In this document: piece by piece, positions 1,256-63,067 of the stretch
Layout of the letters: every line of letters starts with the position of its first letter
Position numbering within the stretch: position 1 is the first letter of the stretch
Assembly (NCBI GenBank): GCA_964633905.1
Contig: CAZWIT010000003.1
Coordinates: forward strand, 67,193 to 131,192
Direction: 5' to 3'
Origin: an uncultured Gammaproteobacteria bacterium
GTDB taxonomy: Bacteria > Patescibacteriota > Patescibacteriia > UBA1558 > GWA2-36-10
Length of the DNA stretch: 64,000 nt
The notes under the pieces: model-generated
What the model saw: only the letters and a program-made list of their open reading frames with translations
Databases searched by the model: none
Told to the model about the DNA's origin: nothing
Made by a program: the position numbers and the translations under genes

Positions 1256-1432
1256 ATGTATCAAGATAAGAATTCGGGCCCAAGTCAAAAATTCCAAGGC
1301 AATTGGCAATGTTCTGACTGTGGCACTGCTATCACTGAACTGCCTTTTGAACCAGAAGGTGATCGCCCAATTCGCTGCCGTGACTGCCACCGCAAATGGG
1401 TGCAAAATCGGCCAAGGCGTCCAAGATTTTAA
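1256..1432 (+). CDS. Small zinc-ribbon protein (CxxC-x17-CxxC), 58 aa, not in the ORF track
   Basis: ATG at 1256, TAA at 1430-1432. Translation MYQDKNSGPSQKFQGNWQCSDCGTAITELPFEPEGDRPIRCRDCHRKWVQNRPRRPRF carries the W-C-x2-CG...PF-P...RP-x-C-x2-C pattern of stand-alone zinc-ribbon proteins. A terminator hairpin follows. Track ORF 1223..1405(-) is its antisense shadow. Confidence 0.55.
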   Translation: MYQDKNSGPSQKFQGNWQCSDCGTAITELPFEPEGDRPIRCRDCHRKWVQNRPRRPRF

Positions 1433-4575: not shown

Positions 4576-5811
4576 TTATTGATAATATTCTTTTATTTGA
4601 TTAATTACTTCTTTTAAACTAAGTTCTTGTTTTTTATGATCCTGACGATGCACTAATTCTAAAGTTTCTTTTCTATCATTATGGATTAACTGTAAACAAA
4701 TACCGATTAGATCTGTATCCTTTAATTTTTTACCAGCCGAAATATCACGATCATCATACAGAACATCAATATTATTTTTAACTAATTCATCATAAATTTT
4801 ATCTGCCTTTTTAGTATCCTTACCTAAATCAAGCAAATGCACCTGATAAGGGCTAGTGTTCTTAGTCCAGATAATACCATTATCATCATGATTAGCCTCT
4901 ACAATGGTGCCCATAGCTCTACCCAAACCAATACCATAACAACCCATAATCACATTTTTTTGCTTACCATCAGCATCGGTAAATTTCAAGCCCATCTTAG
5001 CAGAATATTCAGTACCTAAATTAAATATGTTACCAGCTTCAACGGTTTTTTCTGCCTGCAAAATATGACCACACTTAGGACATTTGTCTCCAGCTTTTAC
5101 TTTGGCAATTTCTGTGTTTTGTGCCCAGCCACATTTAGTACATAAAATAGTTAAATCTTCACCAGCCGGATTAATGACCATAAACTCATGTGAAAATTTT
5201 TCACTAATAGCTCCACCTGAGGCCTCTACTGAAAAAGCTTCTAAACCTAAACGCTTAAAAATCCTAATATAAGCGTCATGAGCCTTTTGATAATACTCGT
5301 CTAAATCAGCTTCATTAGTATGAAAACTATATAAATCTTTCATGACAAATTCACGACCGCGCAATAAGCCAGATTTAGCTCTTTTTTCATCACGAAATTT
5401 AGTCTGAATCTGATAAAGAGCCAAGGGCAAGTCTTTATAAGATACAATATGTTTTTTGACAATGTCAGTAACTACTTCTTCATGGGTTGTACCTAGGCCA
5501 ATTTCACTACCATGGTGATCTTTAAATTGATACATGATAGATTCAACACTAGCCCAACGACCAGTCTGTTGCCACAATTCTTTAGATTGCAAAACTGGCA
5601 TCAAAATTTCTTGACCACCAATAGCATTAATTTCTTCTCTAATAATATTTTCAATCTTACGAAAAGTCCTAAGGCCTAAAGGCAAATAATTATAAACTCC
5701 GGCCATTTGTTTTTCAACAAAGCCAGCCCGAGTAAGTAAATCGGCATTAATACTCTTTTCATCTTGACTAATGTCTTTTCTGGTTTTACCAAATAATCTA
5801 GATTGTCTCAT
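4576..5811 (-). CDS. proS: Prolyl-tRNA synthetase, short form lacking editing domain, with inserted CxxC...CxxC zinc ribbon
   Basis: Class II motif 2 (FRDEKRAKSGLLRGREFVMKDLYSF), motif 3 region, C-terminal anticodon-binding domain. Insertion CTKCGW...CPKCGH. Confidence 0.8.
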   Translation of the reverse strand: MRQSRLFGKTRKDISQDEKSINADLLTRAGFVEKQMAGVYNYLPLGLRTFRKIENIIREEINAIGGQEILMPVLQSKELWQQTGRWASVESIMYQFKDHHGSEIGLGTTHEEVVTDIVKKHIVSYKDLPLALYQIQTKFRDEKRAKSGLLRGREFVMKDLYSFHTNEADLDEYYQKAHDAYIRIFKRLGLEAFSVEASGGAISEKFSHEFMVINPAGEDLTILCTKCGWAQNTEIAKVKAGDKCPKCGHILQAEKTVEAGNIFNLGTEYSAKMGLKFTDADGKQKNVIMGCYGIGLGRAMGTIVEANHDDNGIIWTKNTSPYQVHLLDLGKDTKKADKIYDELVKNNIDVLYDDRDISAGKKLKDTDLIGICLQLIHNDRKETLELVHRQDHKKQELSLKEVINQIKEYYQ

Positions 5812-8918: not shown

Positions 8919-9848
8919 CTAAAGCCACTTTTTCTTATAAAAAATAAAGAGAAAAACACCGACTGCTACTACTGATATGCCCAAGACATAAACAAAAGCT
9001 AAGCTGTGATTAGCCAGAGGCAAGGACACATTCATGCCAAATAAACTAGCAATAATAGTCGGAATAGTCATGATAATCGTAAAAGCAGTTAAAAACTGGA
9101 TGACTTTATTTAATTTGTTGGTAAATAAAATTTGGTAAGAGTCCCTTAAACTCTTAATGCTCTTTAAATTGACTTGGCAAATCTCTACTGACTGCCTAAT
9201 ACTAATAATCATATCATTTAACAAATCCTGATCCTCTTCATAAAGCGGTAAATAGTTACCAGCCGCTATATTTTCAAAAACACTGCGCATTGGTATCAAG
9301 GCCGAAACATATTGATTAAGAATATCTTCAAATTTAATTAATTCGTTAATATCAGAGTCCTGAATGTTTTCTATTTTTTTCTTTTGGGAGGCAACTTGGT
9401 TATTTACTTCGCGTACCCTAGAAGTGAAACGTTGAGAAATTTTAAGCAAAATATAAACTAATAATTTAGCTTTTTGCGTAGTAGCAATTGATAGACTATT
9501 TTTAAGAATATCCTTGATTACTTTGTCTTCAAACAAGGCTAAGCTAATAAAATATTTTTCGGTAATAATAAAGGTCAAAGGCGTGGTATGAATAATGTCT
9601 TTATCGCTAATTTGCTCCCTCGGAATACGGACAAAGACTAACAAGGTTTTTTCTTGGCGTTCAGTGCGAGGCAATTCATGCAAATCCAAAACATCTTGTA
9701 AATCTAGTAAATCCAAATCGGCCATATTAGCCAATTTTTCTAAATCATCATGCTCAAGATGACTAGCATTAATCCAAGCGCCGTCACGAACCTGATCAAG
9801 CTGTTCGATGCGACTACCTTTAGCAGTTTTAAAATAGATATTTAACAT
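8919..9848 (-). CDS. corA: CorA-family Mg2+/Co2+ transporter
   Basis: C-terminal two TM helices with GMN motif (SLFGMNVSLP). Length and acidic N-domain are typical. Confidence 0.8.
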   Translation of the reverse strand: MLNIYFKTAKGSRIEQLDQVRDGAWINASHLEHDDLEKLANMADLDLLDLQDVLDLHELPRTERQEKTLLVFVRIPREQISDKDIIHTTPLTFIITEKYFISLALFEDKVIKDILKNSLSIATTQKAKLLVYILLKISQRFTSRVREVNNQVASQKKKIENIQDSDINELIKFEDILNQYVSALIPMRSVFENIAAGNYLPLYEEDQDLLNDMIISIRQSVEICQVNLKSIKSLRDSYQILFTNKLNKVIQFLTAFTIIMTIPTIIASLFGMNVSLPLANHSLAFVYVLGISVVAVGVFLFIFYKKKWL

Positions 9849-34723: not shown

Positions 34724-35791
34724 CTAGCCACGACGCAGACTGCGCCAGTTGATCGGCTGAGGAGCCACTTGCTGACGCAAACTCTGGCAACGCTCCAGGC
34801 CGAAGCAGTGGAAGGGGCACTCTTGCCCCAAGCACTGCTTGGTTTCCCGGCAGTGCTCATGGGGCAGGTGGTCCGAGCGCACGCCCAGAATAGCAGCGGC
34901 CACAATGACCTCAAACGACAGCTGAGTGACCGGCACGTCCGGATGACTCAAGCTACCATTGAGAAACATCTGGCCGGCTTTCTGGTAGTGCCACTCTTCG
35001 GCACCTTCTACCTTGCCTTCTTGGGCAAGGGTCTCGGCATCCAAGGACTCTTCCAAGCCCTTGGTGGAGCGTTCGCCAACGCGGAGAATGCGCGCCACGT
35101 CTTCCAGTCGCCAGTTCTGCCTGTTGCAGAAAATCTGGACATGCCCAGAAGAACGCTGCACAATCACCACGTCAGCCGCCAGACCGCCGTCCTCGACAGA
35201 GGCACGCGCCATGTTCACAGACATGGTATTGTCGGTCTTGAGCACTGCCAGACGGCAGGCCTTCTGACCGACGACCAGGTCGTGAATTTCGGAATCAGCC
35301 AGCTCGACGCGCGCCGCCTGCCCTCGCTCTTGCTCGGCGTACTTGGCATCAAGTGCCATAATAGCCCAGATAAGAGCATGTTCAGGATCTTTGACGTAGT
35401 GGAACATCAGCTTGGTCAGGGAGAACAAGTCAAAAGGCTGACTGCCTCCGCGTGTGTCGATCCGATGTGTGAATGCCAAAATCTTGGCCAGCGCCGGATC
35501 AGAATCAATCCCTAAGTCCTTGGCTACCAAAGTAGCCGCACACTCAGGACTGGCCTGACCGTTGCGATGTTCGTCAAAACGACCACCGCCAACGCCGATC
35601 AGCAGACAGCCGTCTGCTTCCCACTCTTCTGCCGAGCGATTGTCCGGCGACTTACCACCAGACCAATACTCGACAACAGCCTGATCCACGCCAGGGTATT
35701 TCTTGCTACCCCAGCGCCAGAGCATCCAGATAGCCACGATCTCGTCGAGATGTGGCTTCAGATGCGTCACGATCCTGCGAATATTAGGCAT
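34724..35791 (-). CDS. GC-rich foreign-looking gene: putative metal-dependent hydrolase, MYG1/UPF0160-like N-terminal motifs
   Basis: About 58% GC with CTG/GCG/CGT-rich codons in a one-third-GC genome. Strong SD AAGGAG 6 nt before the ATG. Motifs VTHLKPHLDEIVAIWML and LIGVGGGRFDEH resemble MYG1 THxGxFHxDEALA and DVGGxYD..DHHQ. Many overlapping alternative-frame ORFs are GC artefacts. Confidence 0.6.
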   Translation of the reverse strand: MPNIRRIVTHLKPHLDEIVAIWMLWRWGSKKYPGVDQAVVEYWSGGKSPDNRSAEEWEADGCLLIGVGGGRFDEHRNGQASPECAATLVAKDLGIDSDPALAKILAFTHRIDTRGGSQPFDLFSLTKLMFHYVKDPEHALIWAIMALDAKYAEQERGQAARVELADSEIHDLVVGQKACRLAVLKTDNTMSVNMARASVEDGGLAADVVIVQRSSGHVQIFCNRQNWRLEDVARILRVGERSTKGLEESLDAETLAQEGKVEGAEEWHYQKAGQMFLNGSLSHPDVPVTQLSFEVIVAAAILGVRSDHLPHEHCRETKQCLGQECPFHCFGLERCQSLRQQVAPQPINWRSLRRG

Positions 35792-52761: not shown

Positions 52762-53085
52762 CTAGACATCGATAACGATAATATGGTCGGCCGTACCGTT
52801 ACGCCAGCGCGGGTTAAACCTGGGCTGGTAAAAAGTATCCCGATAGAGCGGCGATAGATCATCGTCACACTGGTGACACTCGCTGTCCTCTGTCAGCACG
52901 ACCAGAGATGCCGACGAGCCAAAGCCAGCGCTCAGGGCTAGCTGATAGGCATCCTCCGGCGACAAAGGCCAACGCGCTTTGATTAGATCAGATAGTATCT
53001 GAGCATTATAACCGTCGCTACCAGTTACCACCTTCATTACCACCTGACCACCCGAACGCACCGTTATCAAGCCTTGTGTAGCCAT
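52762..53085 (-). CDS. GC-rich foreign-looking small protein (107 aa), unknown function
   Basis: About 55% GC coding sequence. SD GGAGGT 9 nt before the ATG. Own promoter TTGACT-17-TATTAT and terminator. MATQGLITVRSGGQVVMKVVTGSDGYNAQILSDLIKARWPLSPEDAYQLALSAGFGSS... Confidence 0.55.
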   Translation of the reverse strand: MATQGLITVRSGGQVVMKVVTGSDGYNAQILSDLIKARWPLSPEDAYQLALSAGFGSSASLVVLTEDSECHQCDDDLSPLYRDTFYQPRFNPRWRNGTADHIIVIDV

Positions 53086-60517: not shown

Positions 60518-61471
60518 ATGGCAAAATTTAATCTAGCCAATATCAGTTTGTTTAAACAACTAGACAAGGCAGAACTTGCTTTACTAGAAAAATTTTGTTT
60601 AGCCAAAAATTACCAAGCTAACCAATATATCTTTGGTCAAAATAAGATTCAAGACCGACTTATTATTATTAAATCTGGTCAGGCTGAGCTTGTTAGCCAA
60701 ATTGATGACGAACAACAAACAATTGCCCTATTTAATACGAATGACTTTTTGGGAGAAATGTCTTTAATAGATCGCCAACAAAAATATGAACATGATTTAA
60801 GAGCCAAAACAGATTTAGAAACATTAGAAATACACCAAAGACATTGGCCGAGCTTAATCAAGCAATCAAATAGACTAAAAGACAAAATTTATAAACAAAC
60901 TGCCAGCATCTTAAACCAACGCTTAAATCATGCTGATAATAAATTACTAGCTTTATTTGCCTTTAGCCAATTTATCGGTAAAGAAAATAGCCTAGAAAAA
61001 ATTAGCGAAAAACTACTAAATATTATTTTAGAAATCATCCCCTCTCAATGCGCAGCTATTGCTAGCTATTCCCATACTACAAACAAATTACACGTTTATC
61101 AAAATAAAAACTACCCTGTTTGGAAAAATGGGCAATATTATTCTATTGAGCACTGGCCTTTATTAAAAAATATTCTAAGGCAGCAACAAAGCCTAATCTT
61201 TCAAATTAATGATTGGCCCCAAAGTAAACAATTGTTGCCTGGCTTAGTACAAAATACTAATATTATCATCCCTATCCGCTTACCAAAAAAAGTTTTGGGC
61301 TTTATTATTTTAGGAAACAAGCATGACCAAGAAGAATATAGTAGCAATAATCAAATATTGCTCGAGGCTCTAGCCATGGAGTTTGCGGCTGTTATTCAAC
61401 AAACACATTTAAATGAATACGAAGAAGCTGCCAGTGAAGTAAAACATATTTTTATTGAACCTCGTGCTTAA
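60518..61471 (+). CDS. Regulatory protein with cNMP-binding-like domain and C-terminal GAF-like domain
   Basis: FGEMSLIDRQ in a CAP-type beta-barrel region. C-terminal part has a GAF-like pattern. Starts 3 bp after pilT. Confidence 0.55.
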   Translation: MAKFNLANISLFKQLDKAELALLEKFCLAKNYQANQYIFGQNKIQDRLIIIKSGQAELVSQIDDEQQTIALFNTNDFLGEMSLIDRQQKYEHDLRAKTDLETLEIHQRHWPSLIKQSNRLKDKIYKQTASILNQRLNHADNKLLALFAFSQFIGKENSLEKISEKLLNIILEIIPSQCAAIASYSHTTNKLHVYQNKNYPVWKNGQYYSIEHWPLLKNILRQQQSLIFQINDWPQSKQLLPGLVQNTNIIIPIRLPKKVLGFIILGNKHDQEEYSSNNQILLEALAMEFAAVIQQTHLNEYEEAASEVKHIFIEPRA

Positions 61472-61548
61472 ATATCAGCCTTGATTTTTTCTTTGCTTTA
61501 TACTATAATATCGACAAATCATAGCTTTTCATGCTATTTTTTTATTAA

Positions 61549-61624
61549 GCGGTTGTAGCTCAATGGATAGAGCACTTGGCTTCGGACCAAGGGGTTGCGG
61601 GTTCGACTCCTGCCGGCCGCACCA
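61549..61624 (+). tRNA. tRNA-Arg (anticodon TCG) with encoded CCA
   Basis: GCGGTTGTAGCTCAATGGATAGAGCACTTGGCTTCGGACCAAGGGGTTGCGGGTTCGACTCCTGCCGGCCGCACCA. All stems pair; anticodon loop CTTCGGA. Confidence 0.8.
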
Positions 61625-61643
61625 AAAAATTATCAAAATAATG

Positions 61644-61718
61644 CCCCTATAGCTCAGCTGGTAGAGCAGTTGCCTCTTAAGCAAACGGTCGTAGGTTCGA
61701 ATCCTGCTGGGGGCACCA
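61644..61718 (+). tRNA. tRNA-Lys (anticodon CTT) with encoded CCA
   Basis: GCCCCTATAGCTCAGCTGGTAGAGCAGTTGCCTCTTAAGCAAACGGTCGTAGGTTCGAATCCTGCTGGGGGCACCA. Anticodon loop CTCTTAA; 27:43 G-A mismatch. Confidence 0.75.
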
Positions 61719-61724
61719 GAAAAT

Positions 61725-61760
61725 CAAGTACAACGTGCTTGTTTTTTATTTTTAAAAATA
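61725..61760 (+). terminator. Terminator-like hairpin CAAGTAC-aac-GTGCTTG + TTTTTTATTTTT after the tRNA pair
   Basis: Stem with one mismatch followed by a T-run. Confidence 0.45.
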
Positions 61761-61854
61761 TAATTTACAGCCTTGCTTTTTGCTGTTAAAATTGCTAATA
61801 TACAGTTTCGTTTTGCCCTTTATTATTCACCCTTGCCTAAGAAAGGACTGCCAC

Positions 61855-62061
61855 ATGTTCAAGCCTGGCGACCATGTCCGGGTCATCCCGGCCTACAGCG
61901 GACCGCTGCAGACGGCCCATGTGCGTATTACCGTAAACCACGGCTTTGGCCCCTTCCGGGTCATCGGGGTGCATCCTCAGGACAGAGGCGGACAGGTCCT
62001 CTGTCTGCAGGTCGGTAACCATCAGACAACCGTCGATTCCCGCATCTTCCAGCCGGCCTAG
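61855..62061 (+). CDS. GC-rich foreign-looking small protein (68 aa), SH3/KOW-like beta-rich, unknown function
   Basis: About 65% GC with very high GC3. SD AAGAAAGGA 7 nt before the ATG at 61855. The track's TTG-start extension (61780) is an AT-rich leader. MFKPGDHVRVIPAYSGPLQTAHVRITVNHGFGPFRVIGVHPQDRGGQVLCLQVGNHQTTVDSRIFQPA. Confidence 0.5.
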   Translation: MFKPGDHVRVIPAYSGPLQTAHVRITVNHGFGPFRVIGVHPQDRGGQVLCLQVGNHQTTVDSRIFQPA

Positions 62062-62082
62062 CTATCCTGAAGGCGATTTAAG

Positions 62083-62119
62083 CCACAAAGGGCGCGCACA
62101 CCAGTGCGTCGCCCTTTCT
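62083..62119 (+). terminator. Strong intrinsic terminator AAAGGGCGCGCAC-acca-GTGCGTCGCCCTTT + CTTTT
   Basis: 13-bp GC-rich stem plus T-run, 20 nt after the stop of the 68-aa ORF. Confidence 0.65.
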
Positions 62120-62149
62120 TTTAAATCAATTATTTGTTAAATTTAAGCT

Positions 62150-63067
62150 ATGAAATTTACTTACCAACAAACAAATAAAGAACGTTTGGATAAATACCTC
62201 CAAACACAGCTCAATATCAGCCGTAGCCAAATAAAAAAAATTATTTTGGATGGTCAGGTTAAAGTTAACCAAGAAATATCTAGCGTTCATCATTGGCTTA
62301 AAGCTAATGATTTGATTGAATATAAGGCTAAAGAAGTTGACCAAAATAATCCAATTGCCAAAAAAAATAACAAAATAATCAAACCCCGCATTATCAAACA
62401 AACTGATGATTATTTAATTATCAATAAACCACATGGCCTACTAGTACACCCTACTGACAAAAAAGAAACTAATACTCTAGCTAATTGGCTACTGGAAAAA
62501 TTTCCTGATTTAATCCATGTTGGCGATGATCCTAGGCGCCCTGGCATTGTCCATCGTTTAGACCGAGAAGTCTCGGGACTAATGATTATTGCTTTAAATC
62601 AAAAATTTTTTGAAATTATCAAAAAACAATTTCAAGAAAGAACCATTATTAAAGAATATACCGCCCTAGCTCATGGTAATATTATCAATAACGAAGGTGA
62701 GGTCATCACACCTTTAGAGAGAGATAATGAAACTGGGCTCATGAAAGCCTTACCGGCAGGCGAAGGCTTAAATGCTCATACTACTTATGAAGTTATAAAA
62801 CGTTATCCTAATTATACTTTAATCAAAGTCCAAATTAAGACTGGAAGAATGCACCAAATTCGTGCCCACCTTTATAGCATTGGCCATTCTATAGTTGGTG
62901 ATAAACTTTATCAAACTAAAGATTTGCGTAAAAAGAAAAAAATTGTTAACTTGCGCATTTTCCTTCACGCTAGTTCCCTAAAATTTCAAGATGCTCGAGG
63001 CCAGTGGCAATCCTATCAATCAAAATTACCAATTGAGTTAGAAAAATTTTTAGCTGAATTAAAATAA
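62150..63067 (+). CDS. rluD: RluA-family 23S rRNA pseudouridine synthase (RluD-like, N-terminal S4 domain)
   Basis: S4 domain (RLDKYLQTQLNISRSQIKKIILDGQVKVN), catalytic HRLDREVSGLMIIA, and the KEYTALAHG / GRMHQIRAHL motifs. Confidence 0.8.
   Translation: MKFTYQQTNKERLDKYLQTQLNISRSQIKKIILDGQVKVNQEISSVHHWLKANDLIEYKAKEVDQNNPIAKKNNKIIKPRIIKQTDDYLIINKPHGLLVHPTDKKETNTLANWLLEKFPDLIHVGDDPRRPGIVHRLDREVSGLMIIALNQKFFEIIKKQFQERTIIKEYTALAHGNIINNEGEVITPLERDNETGLMKALPAGEGLNAHTTYEVIKRYPNYTLIKVQIKTGRMHQIRAHLYSIGHSIVGDKLYQTKDLRKKKKIVNLRIFLHASSLKFQDARGQWQSYQSKLPIELEKFLAELK

Follow-up and report, generated by a model that had tools for sequence, protein, structure and literature searches.

Phage morons are autonomous units of promoter, gene, and terminator that deviate in composition from their surroundings and are inserted between other genes. 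A different kind of outlier is found in bacteria that are poor in Shine-Dalgarno (SD) sequences, which keep a strong SD on a minority of genes, for example rpsU in Bacteroidia. For Parcubacteria, the anti-SD motif has been reported as undetectable in about half of the group (PMC9297842). Here we analyzed a stretch of 64,000 nt from contig CAZWIT010000003.1 (positions 67,193 to 131,192, referred to below as the window), in which a locus shares traits with each of these systems. It consists of a GC-rich, SD-led open reading frame (ORF) for a 68-aa protein, referred to as the small ORF, that lies between a tRNA-Arg/tRNA-Lys pair and an AT-rich, rluD-type pseudouridine synthase gene. The small ORF is probably a genuine gene that has been inherited vertically upstream of rluD, with its GC richness maintained and with a possible link to translation.

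The homologue search, which combined a word-indexed search with exhaustive HMMER over a library drawn from ~15 billion proteins (1.84 billion representatives), revealed a family of seven distinct sequences, namely the window protein and six others. The close members P0001 and P0002 are 93% and 86% identical to the window protein, respectively, the latter belonging to the relative of loci L005/L006, and the distant members P0006, P0007, P0009, and P0012 show 34–38% identity. The small ORF was present in all relatives found (loci L001–L019), with no presence/absence polymorphism. One further match, in a GC-rich metagenomic contig of 194 kb (L020), proved to be intergenic and to contain in-frame stops, and was rejected as spurious. 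The distribution suggests that the family occurs only within a narrow group of Patescibacteria-like bacteria whose genomes are tiny and AT-rich. The gene content of L006 (type IV pilus PilT and pilins, POR, and small AT-rich genes) points to an organism of the Patescibacteria/candidate phyla radiation type, as do the Patescibacteria names carried by homologues of a GC-rich, 355-aa ORF of the window (34724–35791).

Comparison of gene order disclosed that rluD is the next gene in every homologous locus that reaches downstream (L001–L006, L007–L011, L016/L018, and L017). In those loci, a hairpin terminator and the same AT-rich element (...TGTTAAATTTAAGCTATG) lie between the small ORF and the AT-rich rluD. 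L018, a contig of 10.3 kb, represents a distant lineage in which RluD is 60% and the small protein 37% identical to their counterparts in the window; it has the same order as the window: membrane protein, PilT, cNMP/GAF, tRNA-Arg(tcg), tRNA-Lys(ctt), small ORF, rluD, cmk, and rplS, the window itself ending this series with cmk and the start of rplS. Elsewhere, the upstream neighbor is an acyltransferase gene (L007/L008), a membrane protein gene (L015), or an overlapping ORF (L017). Because the adjacency to rluD is kept where the tRNAs are not upstream, the small ORF travels with rluD and not with the tRNAs. Judged by this gene order, its placement beside the tRNAs is old, and it has been inherited vertically at the rluD junction since before the split of lineages with ~60% RluD identity.

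From base composition, an open frame of 68 codons in sequence of 62% GC has an estimated chance probability of ~0.13 per frame, and the GC-rich island is overlapped by four ORFs longer than 60 aa. The length of the ORF alone is therefore not beyond chance, and its reality rests on the comparison with relatives. Between the window and L006, differences at codon positions 1, 2, and 3 number 10, 7, and 33, respectively (chi-square p = 5e-6), and the codon changes comprise 28 synonymous and 9 non-synonymous ones. The ratio of non-synonymous to synonymous substitution rates (dN/dS, NG86) is 0.056 against L006 and 0.23 against L001. On the evidence of these sequence comparisons, the 68-aa ORF is translated and its protein evolves under purifying selection. 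Coding in antisense or in another frame was also considered and rejected; the -1 frame is free of stops in several members and interrupted by them in L015, L017, and L018, and the substitutions fit the + frame only.

Modeling with AlphaFold2 from the seven family sequences gave a predicted local distance difference test score (pLDDT) of 92.5 and a predicted template modeling score (pTM) of 0.76, superseding an earlier run on three close sequences with a pLDDT of 45. With high confidence, the 68-aa protein is predicted to be a small SH3-like beta-barrel of five strands (beta1, residues 7–10; beta2 to beta5, residues 34–41, 47–53, 56–61, and 65–67) with one inserted helix (residues 19–29). Foldseek searches of PDB and BFVD returned generic SH3-like barrels, among them NdhS/Ssl0352, Tudor, FeoA, the KOW domain of eS4, PetP, the KOW domains of RfaH/Spt5, and many uncharacterized phage proteins, at template modeling scores of 0.43–0.70 and probabilities of 0.9–1.0. 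A resemblance to an SH3/KOW-type barrel had been proposed from the sequence alone, and the model and its matches agree with it and add Tudor-type barrels; the accompanying likeness to DUF1918 or to nitrile hydratase beta found no counterpart, as no Pfam family matched the protein even at E <= 10. Eleven residues are invariant in all seven members (F2, A21, G32, P33, G38, H40, P41, G46, Q47, V60, and I64), H29 is conserved, and the family core motif reads GP(F/Y)-x-(V/I)-x-G-x-HP. NCBIfam gave no meaningful match, the family profile had none among PDB chain sequences, no PADLOC defense-system model matched at E <= 1, and tblastn found no paralogues within the window.

The sequence-only reading of this stretch had described a mini-cassette of promoter, SD, 68-aa ORF, and terminator immediately after the tRNA pair, and we found all of its elements in place with small corrections of coordinates. 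These include the AT-rich leader of the GC-rich ORF, both candidate promoters, and the terminator with its 13-bp stem between the tRNAs and rluD (Table 1). The TAATAT -10 box and the AAAATT context of the TTGCTT-17-TAATAT site are kept in L015 and L018. Over 24 nt (..CAGCCTTGMTTTTT..), the -35 region of this site (61761–61784) is 79% identical to that of the tRNA-operon promoter (61469–61492), with a spacing of 17 nt to the -10 box in both. The TTGCTT-17-TAATAT site likely serves as the promoter of the small ORF, with transcription expected to start at ~61808, and its likeness to the tRNA-operon promoter hints at strong, stable-RNA-like expression. All family members carry an AGGA/GGAGGA motif 5–9 nt 5' of the ATG. 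The terminator hairpin and U-run are retained in L006, L007, L017, and L018 with differing stem sequences whose pairing is kept (variants AAAGGGCG...CGCCCUUU and, in L007, GGCUAGUCC...GGACUAGC), and SD and terminator are conserved in five lineages. On the tRNA side, a hairpin and T-run equivalent to that of the window also follow tRNA-Lys in L018 and L006. The small ORF would thus form a separately transcribed unit of a sigma-70-type promoter, an SD-bearing leader of ~50 nt, the 68-codon coding sequence, and an intrinsic terminator, and most of its transcripts would end at the hairpin, at ~62120.

Table 1. Features of the tRNA–rluD locus and other GC-rich or SD-led ORFs (window coordinates unless marked as L018)
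Feature	Position	Strand	Evidence and remarks
cNMP/GAF gene, 5' of the tRNA pair	60518–61471		Pfam
tRNA-operon promoter-like site, TTGATT-17-TATAAT	61481–61509		
tRNA-Arg, anticodon TCG	61549–61624	+	ARAGORN; Rfam tRNA, 67.1 bits
tRNA-Lys, anticodon CTT	61643–61718	+	ARAGORN; Rfam tRNA, 68.1 bits
tRNA-side terminator, short hairpin and T-run ending the tRNA transcription unit	61725–61750 (hairpin and T-run 61725–61741)	+	Terminator-like site
Alternative promoter candidate overlapping the next, TTTACA-17-TAAAAT	61764–61792	+	10/12 consensus matches
Promoter-like site, TTGCTT-17-(TG-n)-TAATAT	61773–61801 (boxes 61773–61778 and 61796–61801)	+	Sequence reading and conservation
SD, AAGAAAGGA	61839–61847	+	Sequence; 7 nt ahead of the ATG
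Coding sequence, 68-aa protein	61855–62061	+	ATG 61855, TAG 62059–62061; GC 0.62, GC3 0.75
Intrinsic terminator, 13-bp G+C-rich stem, 4-nt loop, U-run	62087–62122 (stem 62087–62117)	+	-26.9 kcal/mol, z = -4.2
Conserved AT-rich element, AAATCAATTATTTGTTAAATTTAAGCT, 27 nt, possible extended -10 promoter for rluD	62123–62149	+	Conservation; promoter role putative
rluD-type pseudouridine synthase gene	62150–63067	+	Pfam PseudoU_synth_2 (4e-33) and S4 domain; synteny
355-aa ORF	34724–35791	-	GC 0.58, GC3 0.66; SD GAAGGAGAG; between POR operon and ferredoxin/NifS genes
107-aa orphan ORF	52762–53085	-	Strong SD GGGAGGTGA; island GC 0.59, AT-rich flanking genes
GGAGG-led ORF, 57 aa	34023–34196	-	Motif scan
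GGAGG-led ORF, 40 aa	56635–56757	-	Motif scan
GGAGG-led ORF, 44 aa	56973–57107	-	Motif scan
167-aa ORF in L018	4–507 (L018)	-	GC ~0.64, SD GAAGGAGGAG; contig end, beside AT-rich genes; no Pfam match

The composition of the small ORF sets it apart from its surroundings. GC content is 0.62–0.64 over the island, ~0.30 on either side, and 0.343 for the whole window, and the interval 61719–62149 holds only the 68-aa ORF plus overlapping chance ORFs. Across the family, GC ranges from 0.54 to 0.64, GC at third codon positions (GC3) is 0.61–0.78 in six of the seven lineages, and C at third positions (C3) is near 0.5; the adjoining rluD genes have a GC3 of 0.26–0.30. The codons TTC, ATC, and AAG are used at 0.88, 0.84, and 0.71 in the family against 0.11, 0.28, and 0.11 in native genes, respectively, and the leucine-type choice falls on CTG/CTC in the family and on TTA in native genes. 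Since rplS of the relatives L018 and L006 has a C3 of only 0.16–0.17, like other native genes, the codon style of the small ORF is not a local high-expression bias.

The comparison of the window with L006 also bears on how this composition is kept. Flanking genes differ by 11–12% with symmetric GC/AT exchanges, whereas the small ORF differs by 24%, with 36 sites changed from G/C to A/T and 9 in reverse; synonymous divergence (dS) is 1.94 for the small ORF and 0.6–0.83 for the flanking genes. In L006, the GC3 of the small ORF fell to 0.46 within a flanking-gene dS of ~0.7. This asymmetry, together with the GC-rich outgroups, polarizes a rapid loss of GC to the L006 lineage. Given that decay there was fast and that GC3 has stayed high elsewhere at ~40% RluD divergence, the composition appears to be maintained. 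We infer that the GC richness is kept up by selection, acting on nucleotides, mRNA, or expression, and does not reflect unfinished amelioration.

In order to survey SD use, we took 31 listed starts, excluded one (63848) that was off register, and scored GGAG, GAGG, or AGGA within 25 nt upstream as an SD. All 27 AT-rich genes in the window, rluD among them, have leaders of almost pure A/T with no SD motif, and all three GC-rich ORFs (68, 355, and 107 aa) are SD-led. The 355-aa ORF has no Pfam match; its family is widespread in Patescibacteria at ~40% identity, with syntenic orthologues in L021 (66% identity) and L022 (49%). These orthologues have a GC3 of 0.56–0.64 against 0.28–0.41 for most flanking genes, one other ORF in L022 being GC-richer, and the L021 copy is also SD-led. 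High GC has thus persisted in another, independent gene as well. The 107-aa orphan ORF had no match in Pfam, NCBIfam, PADLOC, or viral contigs, and viral-contig scans found nothing for the 355-aa ORF either. The three small ORFs from the GGAGG motif scan encode hydrophobic, transmembrane-like products without Pfam matches and have the motif 6–7 nt before the ATG; the 44-aa ORF has a GC content of 0.55 and is followed by a hairpin and T-run. Separately, a 58-aa treble-clef zinc-finger protein (Pfam zf_Tbcl_2, 1.4e-10) is encoded at 1256–1432 (+) in a moderately GC-rich patch, without an SD and with a hairpin terminator 3' of it. Literature searches for a class of GC-rich, SD-led genes in Patescibacteria returned nothing specific.

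These orphan cassettes, scattered in this genome and its relatives, are also what would be expected if the small ORF were an ancient, horizontally acquired cassette of the moron type whose composition has not yet ameliorated, with no selection on GC and an accidental position at rluD. Its codon usage resembles what a donor with high GC and SD-led genes would have, the spread of the 355-aa family in other Patescibacteria illustrates that such genes can come from higher-GC relatives, and the L006 copy is indeed ameliorating. The pace of that amelioration is, however, the difficulty for this explanation, because neutral decay at the rate seen in L006 should be finished over the divergence across which the other lineages have held their GC3. 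Furthermore, no homologue of the small ORF exists in any GC-rich genome among the 1.84 billion representatives, L020 being spurious. We consider an unameliorated acquisition unlikely.

A more far-reaching proposal goes beyond maintained GC in a single gene. The 68-aa gene could belong to a selectively maintained class of SD-led, GC-rich (C/G-ending) genes that constitute a separate translation or expression regime, in genomes whose other genes are mostly AT-rich and SD-less and that are possibly those of anti-SD-poor Parcubacteria. We regard this proposal as quite unlikely. If it were true, the regime could be, for example, a regulon translated only by a ribosome state with exposed anti-SD or a set of mRNAs that withstand AU-specific RNases; the most speculative option is a set of genes adapted to the expression machinery of a GC-rich host. 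The small barrel could then be a ribosome-associated protein that is specific to the lineage and connected with RluD.

The constant order of promoter, ORF, terminator, and rluD in all lineages, together with the absence of an SD from rluD, would also suit a translated leader or attenuator ORF that controls read-through of the terminator into rluD. Such an ORF would not be expected to encode a peptide under purifying selection with a confidently predicted domain. A terminating ribosome has a footprint that does not reach ~25 nt downstream of the stop codon, and the stop codon of the small ORF lies ~25 nt before the terminator stem and hence beyond its reach. The folds contain no alternative antiterminator pairing, and between the terminator and rluD lies the AT-rich element with its extended -10-like TGTTAAATT. 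Control of rluD by attenuation is thus very unlikely. It is probable that rluD is served by an extended -10-like element of its own, TGTTAAATT, followed by 6 nt and the ATG, and the AT-rich element (TGTTAAATTTAAGCTATG) hardly varies between lineages whose RluD identity is only ~60%. We also observed that TGTTAAATTTAAGCTATG before rluD (62123–62152) resembles TGTTATAATATAGCTATG 5' of another gene (8919–9848, -). The two elements suggest extended -10 promoters with transcripts that start at or near the ATG, that is, leaderless ones; a crude window-wide check for leaderless native genes, which looked for -10 boxes at constant spacing from the start codon, showed no clear peak.

The sequence-only reading had taken the cassette for an insertion by an integrative element at the tRNA genes. 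Its position after the tRNA pair, its deviant GC, and its autonomous architecture would fit a recent cargo, brought to the tRNA-Lys gene by a mobile element, and in relatives the junction does hold another cassette. L006 and L001–L004 carry an extra 174-aa gene between the tRNA-Lys terminator and the promoter of the small ORF (L006 5149–5900, CAZHLU010000032.1). This gene has its own SD-like GGGGG, its own hairpin terminator, and a GC content of ~0.40–0.47, and no family match was found for its product. By parsimony, either the window lineage has lost it or the other lineages have acquired it. The variable unit on the tRNA-proximal side is, by this comparison, the 174-aa cassette and not the small ORF, and this side of the interval would be where other cassettes come and go. 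In addition, a degenerate tRNA-Lys-like fragment (GCCCCTAAGCTTAAGCTGGTAGA...CTCTTAAGCAAA) interrupted by a hairpin occurs in L006 at 4983–5050, where it separates tRNA-Arg from the intact tRNA-Lys; it may be the scar of a rearrangement or integration at this tRNA, and it also suits the idea of a mobile element.

Comparison of the tRNA–rluD interval in relatives, which the sequence-only reading had itself put forward, revealed the same gene conserved there; all relatives found, the distant L018 among them, have it in the same position, and it stays with rluD where the tRNAs are not upstream. The ORF list holds no integrase or recombinase in the interval 61719–62149, and no att-like repeat of the tRNA-Lys 3' end was found in 61400–62400, where the repeats are AT-rich or promoter-like only. 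Neither the search of viral contigs (no homologue) nor that of PHROG families (none significant, best E 0.023) connects the small ORF with mobile DNA. The insertion at the tRNA does not hold up, and we consider a recent mobile-element origin of the small ORF extremely unlikely.

Structural RNAs often account for GC-rich islands in AT-rich genomes, and as a single strand the island folds at -110 kcal/mol (z = -2.1; second fold z = -1.7), values that are unremarkable for GC-rich sequence. The ORF of the window has a fold z of -0.3, and the ORFs of some homologues reach z = -2 to -3.5. Rfam, searched in E-value mode over 61400–62300 (E <= 10) and in gathering mode over the whole window, returned the tRNAs only, and RNAalifold on a codon-threaded alignment of the seven members gave -6.5 kcal/mol with a covariation term of -0.41, disclosing no conserved structure. 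With codon-periodic substitutions, low dN/dS, and a conserved SD on top of this, the island can hardly be primarily a structured non-coding or dual-function RNA in which the ORF is incidental.

We return, then, to a vertically inherited gene with maintained GC richness. Its product could be a small protein- or RNA-binding module, possibly tied to ribosome or translation biology, a tentative assignment that we offer with low confidence. The link to translation is a guess made because the position of the small ORF is fixed before rluD, cmk, and rplS. Several points weigh against this interpretation. The isoelectric point (pI) of the family members ranges from 4.8 to 10, which disfavors a conserved nucleic-acid-binding role, and this variability and the intervening terminator both weaken the link to translation. 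With a terminator between the small ORF and rluD, their adjacency could be historical and not functional. The fold matches are generic, none reaching E <= 0.001 in Foldseek against PDB and BFVD, and the predicted model and the invariant motif derive from a shallow alignment of seven distinct sequences. The case for selection on GC is an argument built on a single decaying lineage and on saturated synonymous sites. Use of the proposed promoter and SD is suggested by consensus and conservation. Finally, the Patescibacteria label is indirect, coming from homologues of the 355-aa gene that carry this label.

What appears new here is the very small, clade-restricted family; the fold predicted for it is itself common. 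The main lead is that a few SD-led, GC-rich genes persist where neutral amelioration should be complete, surrounded by genes, the ribosomal protein gene rplS among them, that are AT-rich and SD-less. If this dichotomy holds genome-wide, it would give a handle on the partitioning of translation initiation in Patescibacteria reported to be without an anti-SD (PMC9297842), and it would bear on base composition as a selected, gene-specific trait. The locus also carries a caution for heuristics that search for genomic islands, as deviant GC beside a tRNA was no recent insertion here.

Compared with described small SH3-like barrels (FeoA, NdhS/Ssl0352, PetP, Tudor, and the KOW domains of eS4, Spt5, and RfaH), the 68-aa protein shares the size of ~60–80 aa and the five-stranded barrel, and FeoA-type barrels also bear helical insertions, as its model does. 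Unlike those barrels, the family has its own GPF-x-V-x-G-x-HP motif and no sequence-profile relationship to them, and the small ORF lies in a different context, with no feoB, no NDH-1, and no ribosomal operon nearby. Unlike translated attenuators, the small ORF has a conserved product, and no competing terminator and antiterminator structures appear in its folds.

As with tRNA-linked islands and integrative elements, the site lies 3' of a tRNA gene and the content of the junction is polymorphic in relatives, yet there is no integrase, there are no att repeats, and the small ORF is not the polymorphic part. The resemblance to phage morons comprises the gene's own promoter-like site, its own terminator, its deviant composition, and, in relatives, the second cassette of 174 aa stacked beside it. 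Unlike morons, the small ORF is chromosomal among housekeeping genes, has no viral homologues, and has been conserved vertically over deep divergence. In SD-poor systems, a coupling of the SD to GC-rich codon usage has not been described, the locus has no known link to bS21, and the 3' end of the 16S rRNA lies outside the window. What the window does share with SD-poor bacteria, and with Parcubacteria that lack an anti-SD (PMC9297842), is the division itself: native genes that are SD-less beside a small set of genes that are SD-led.

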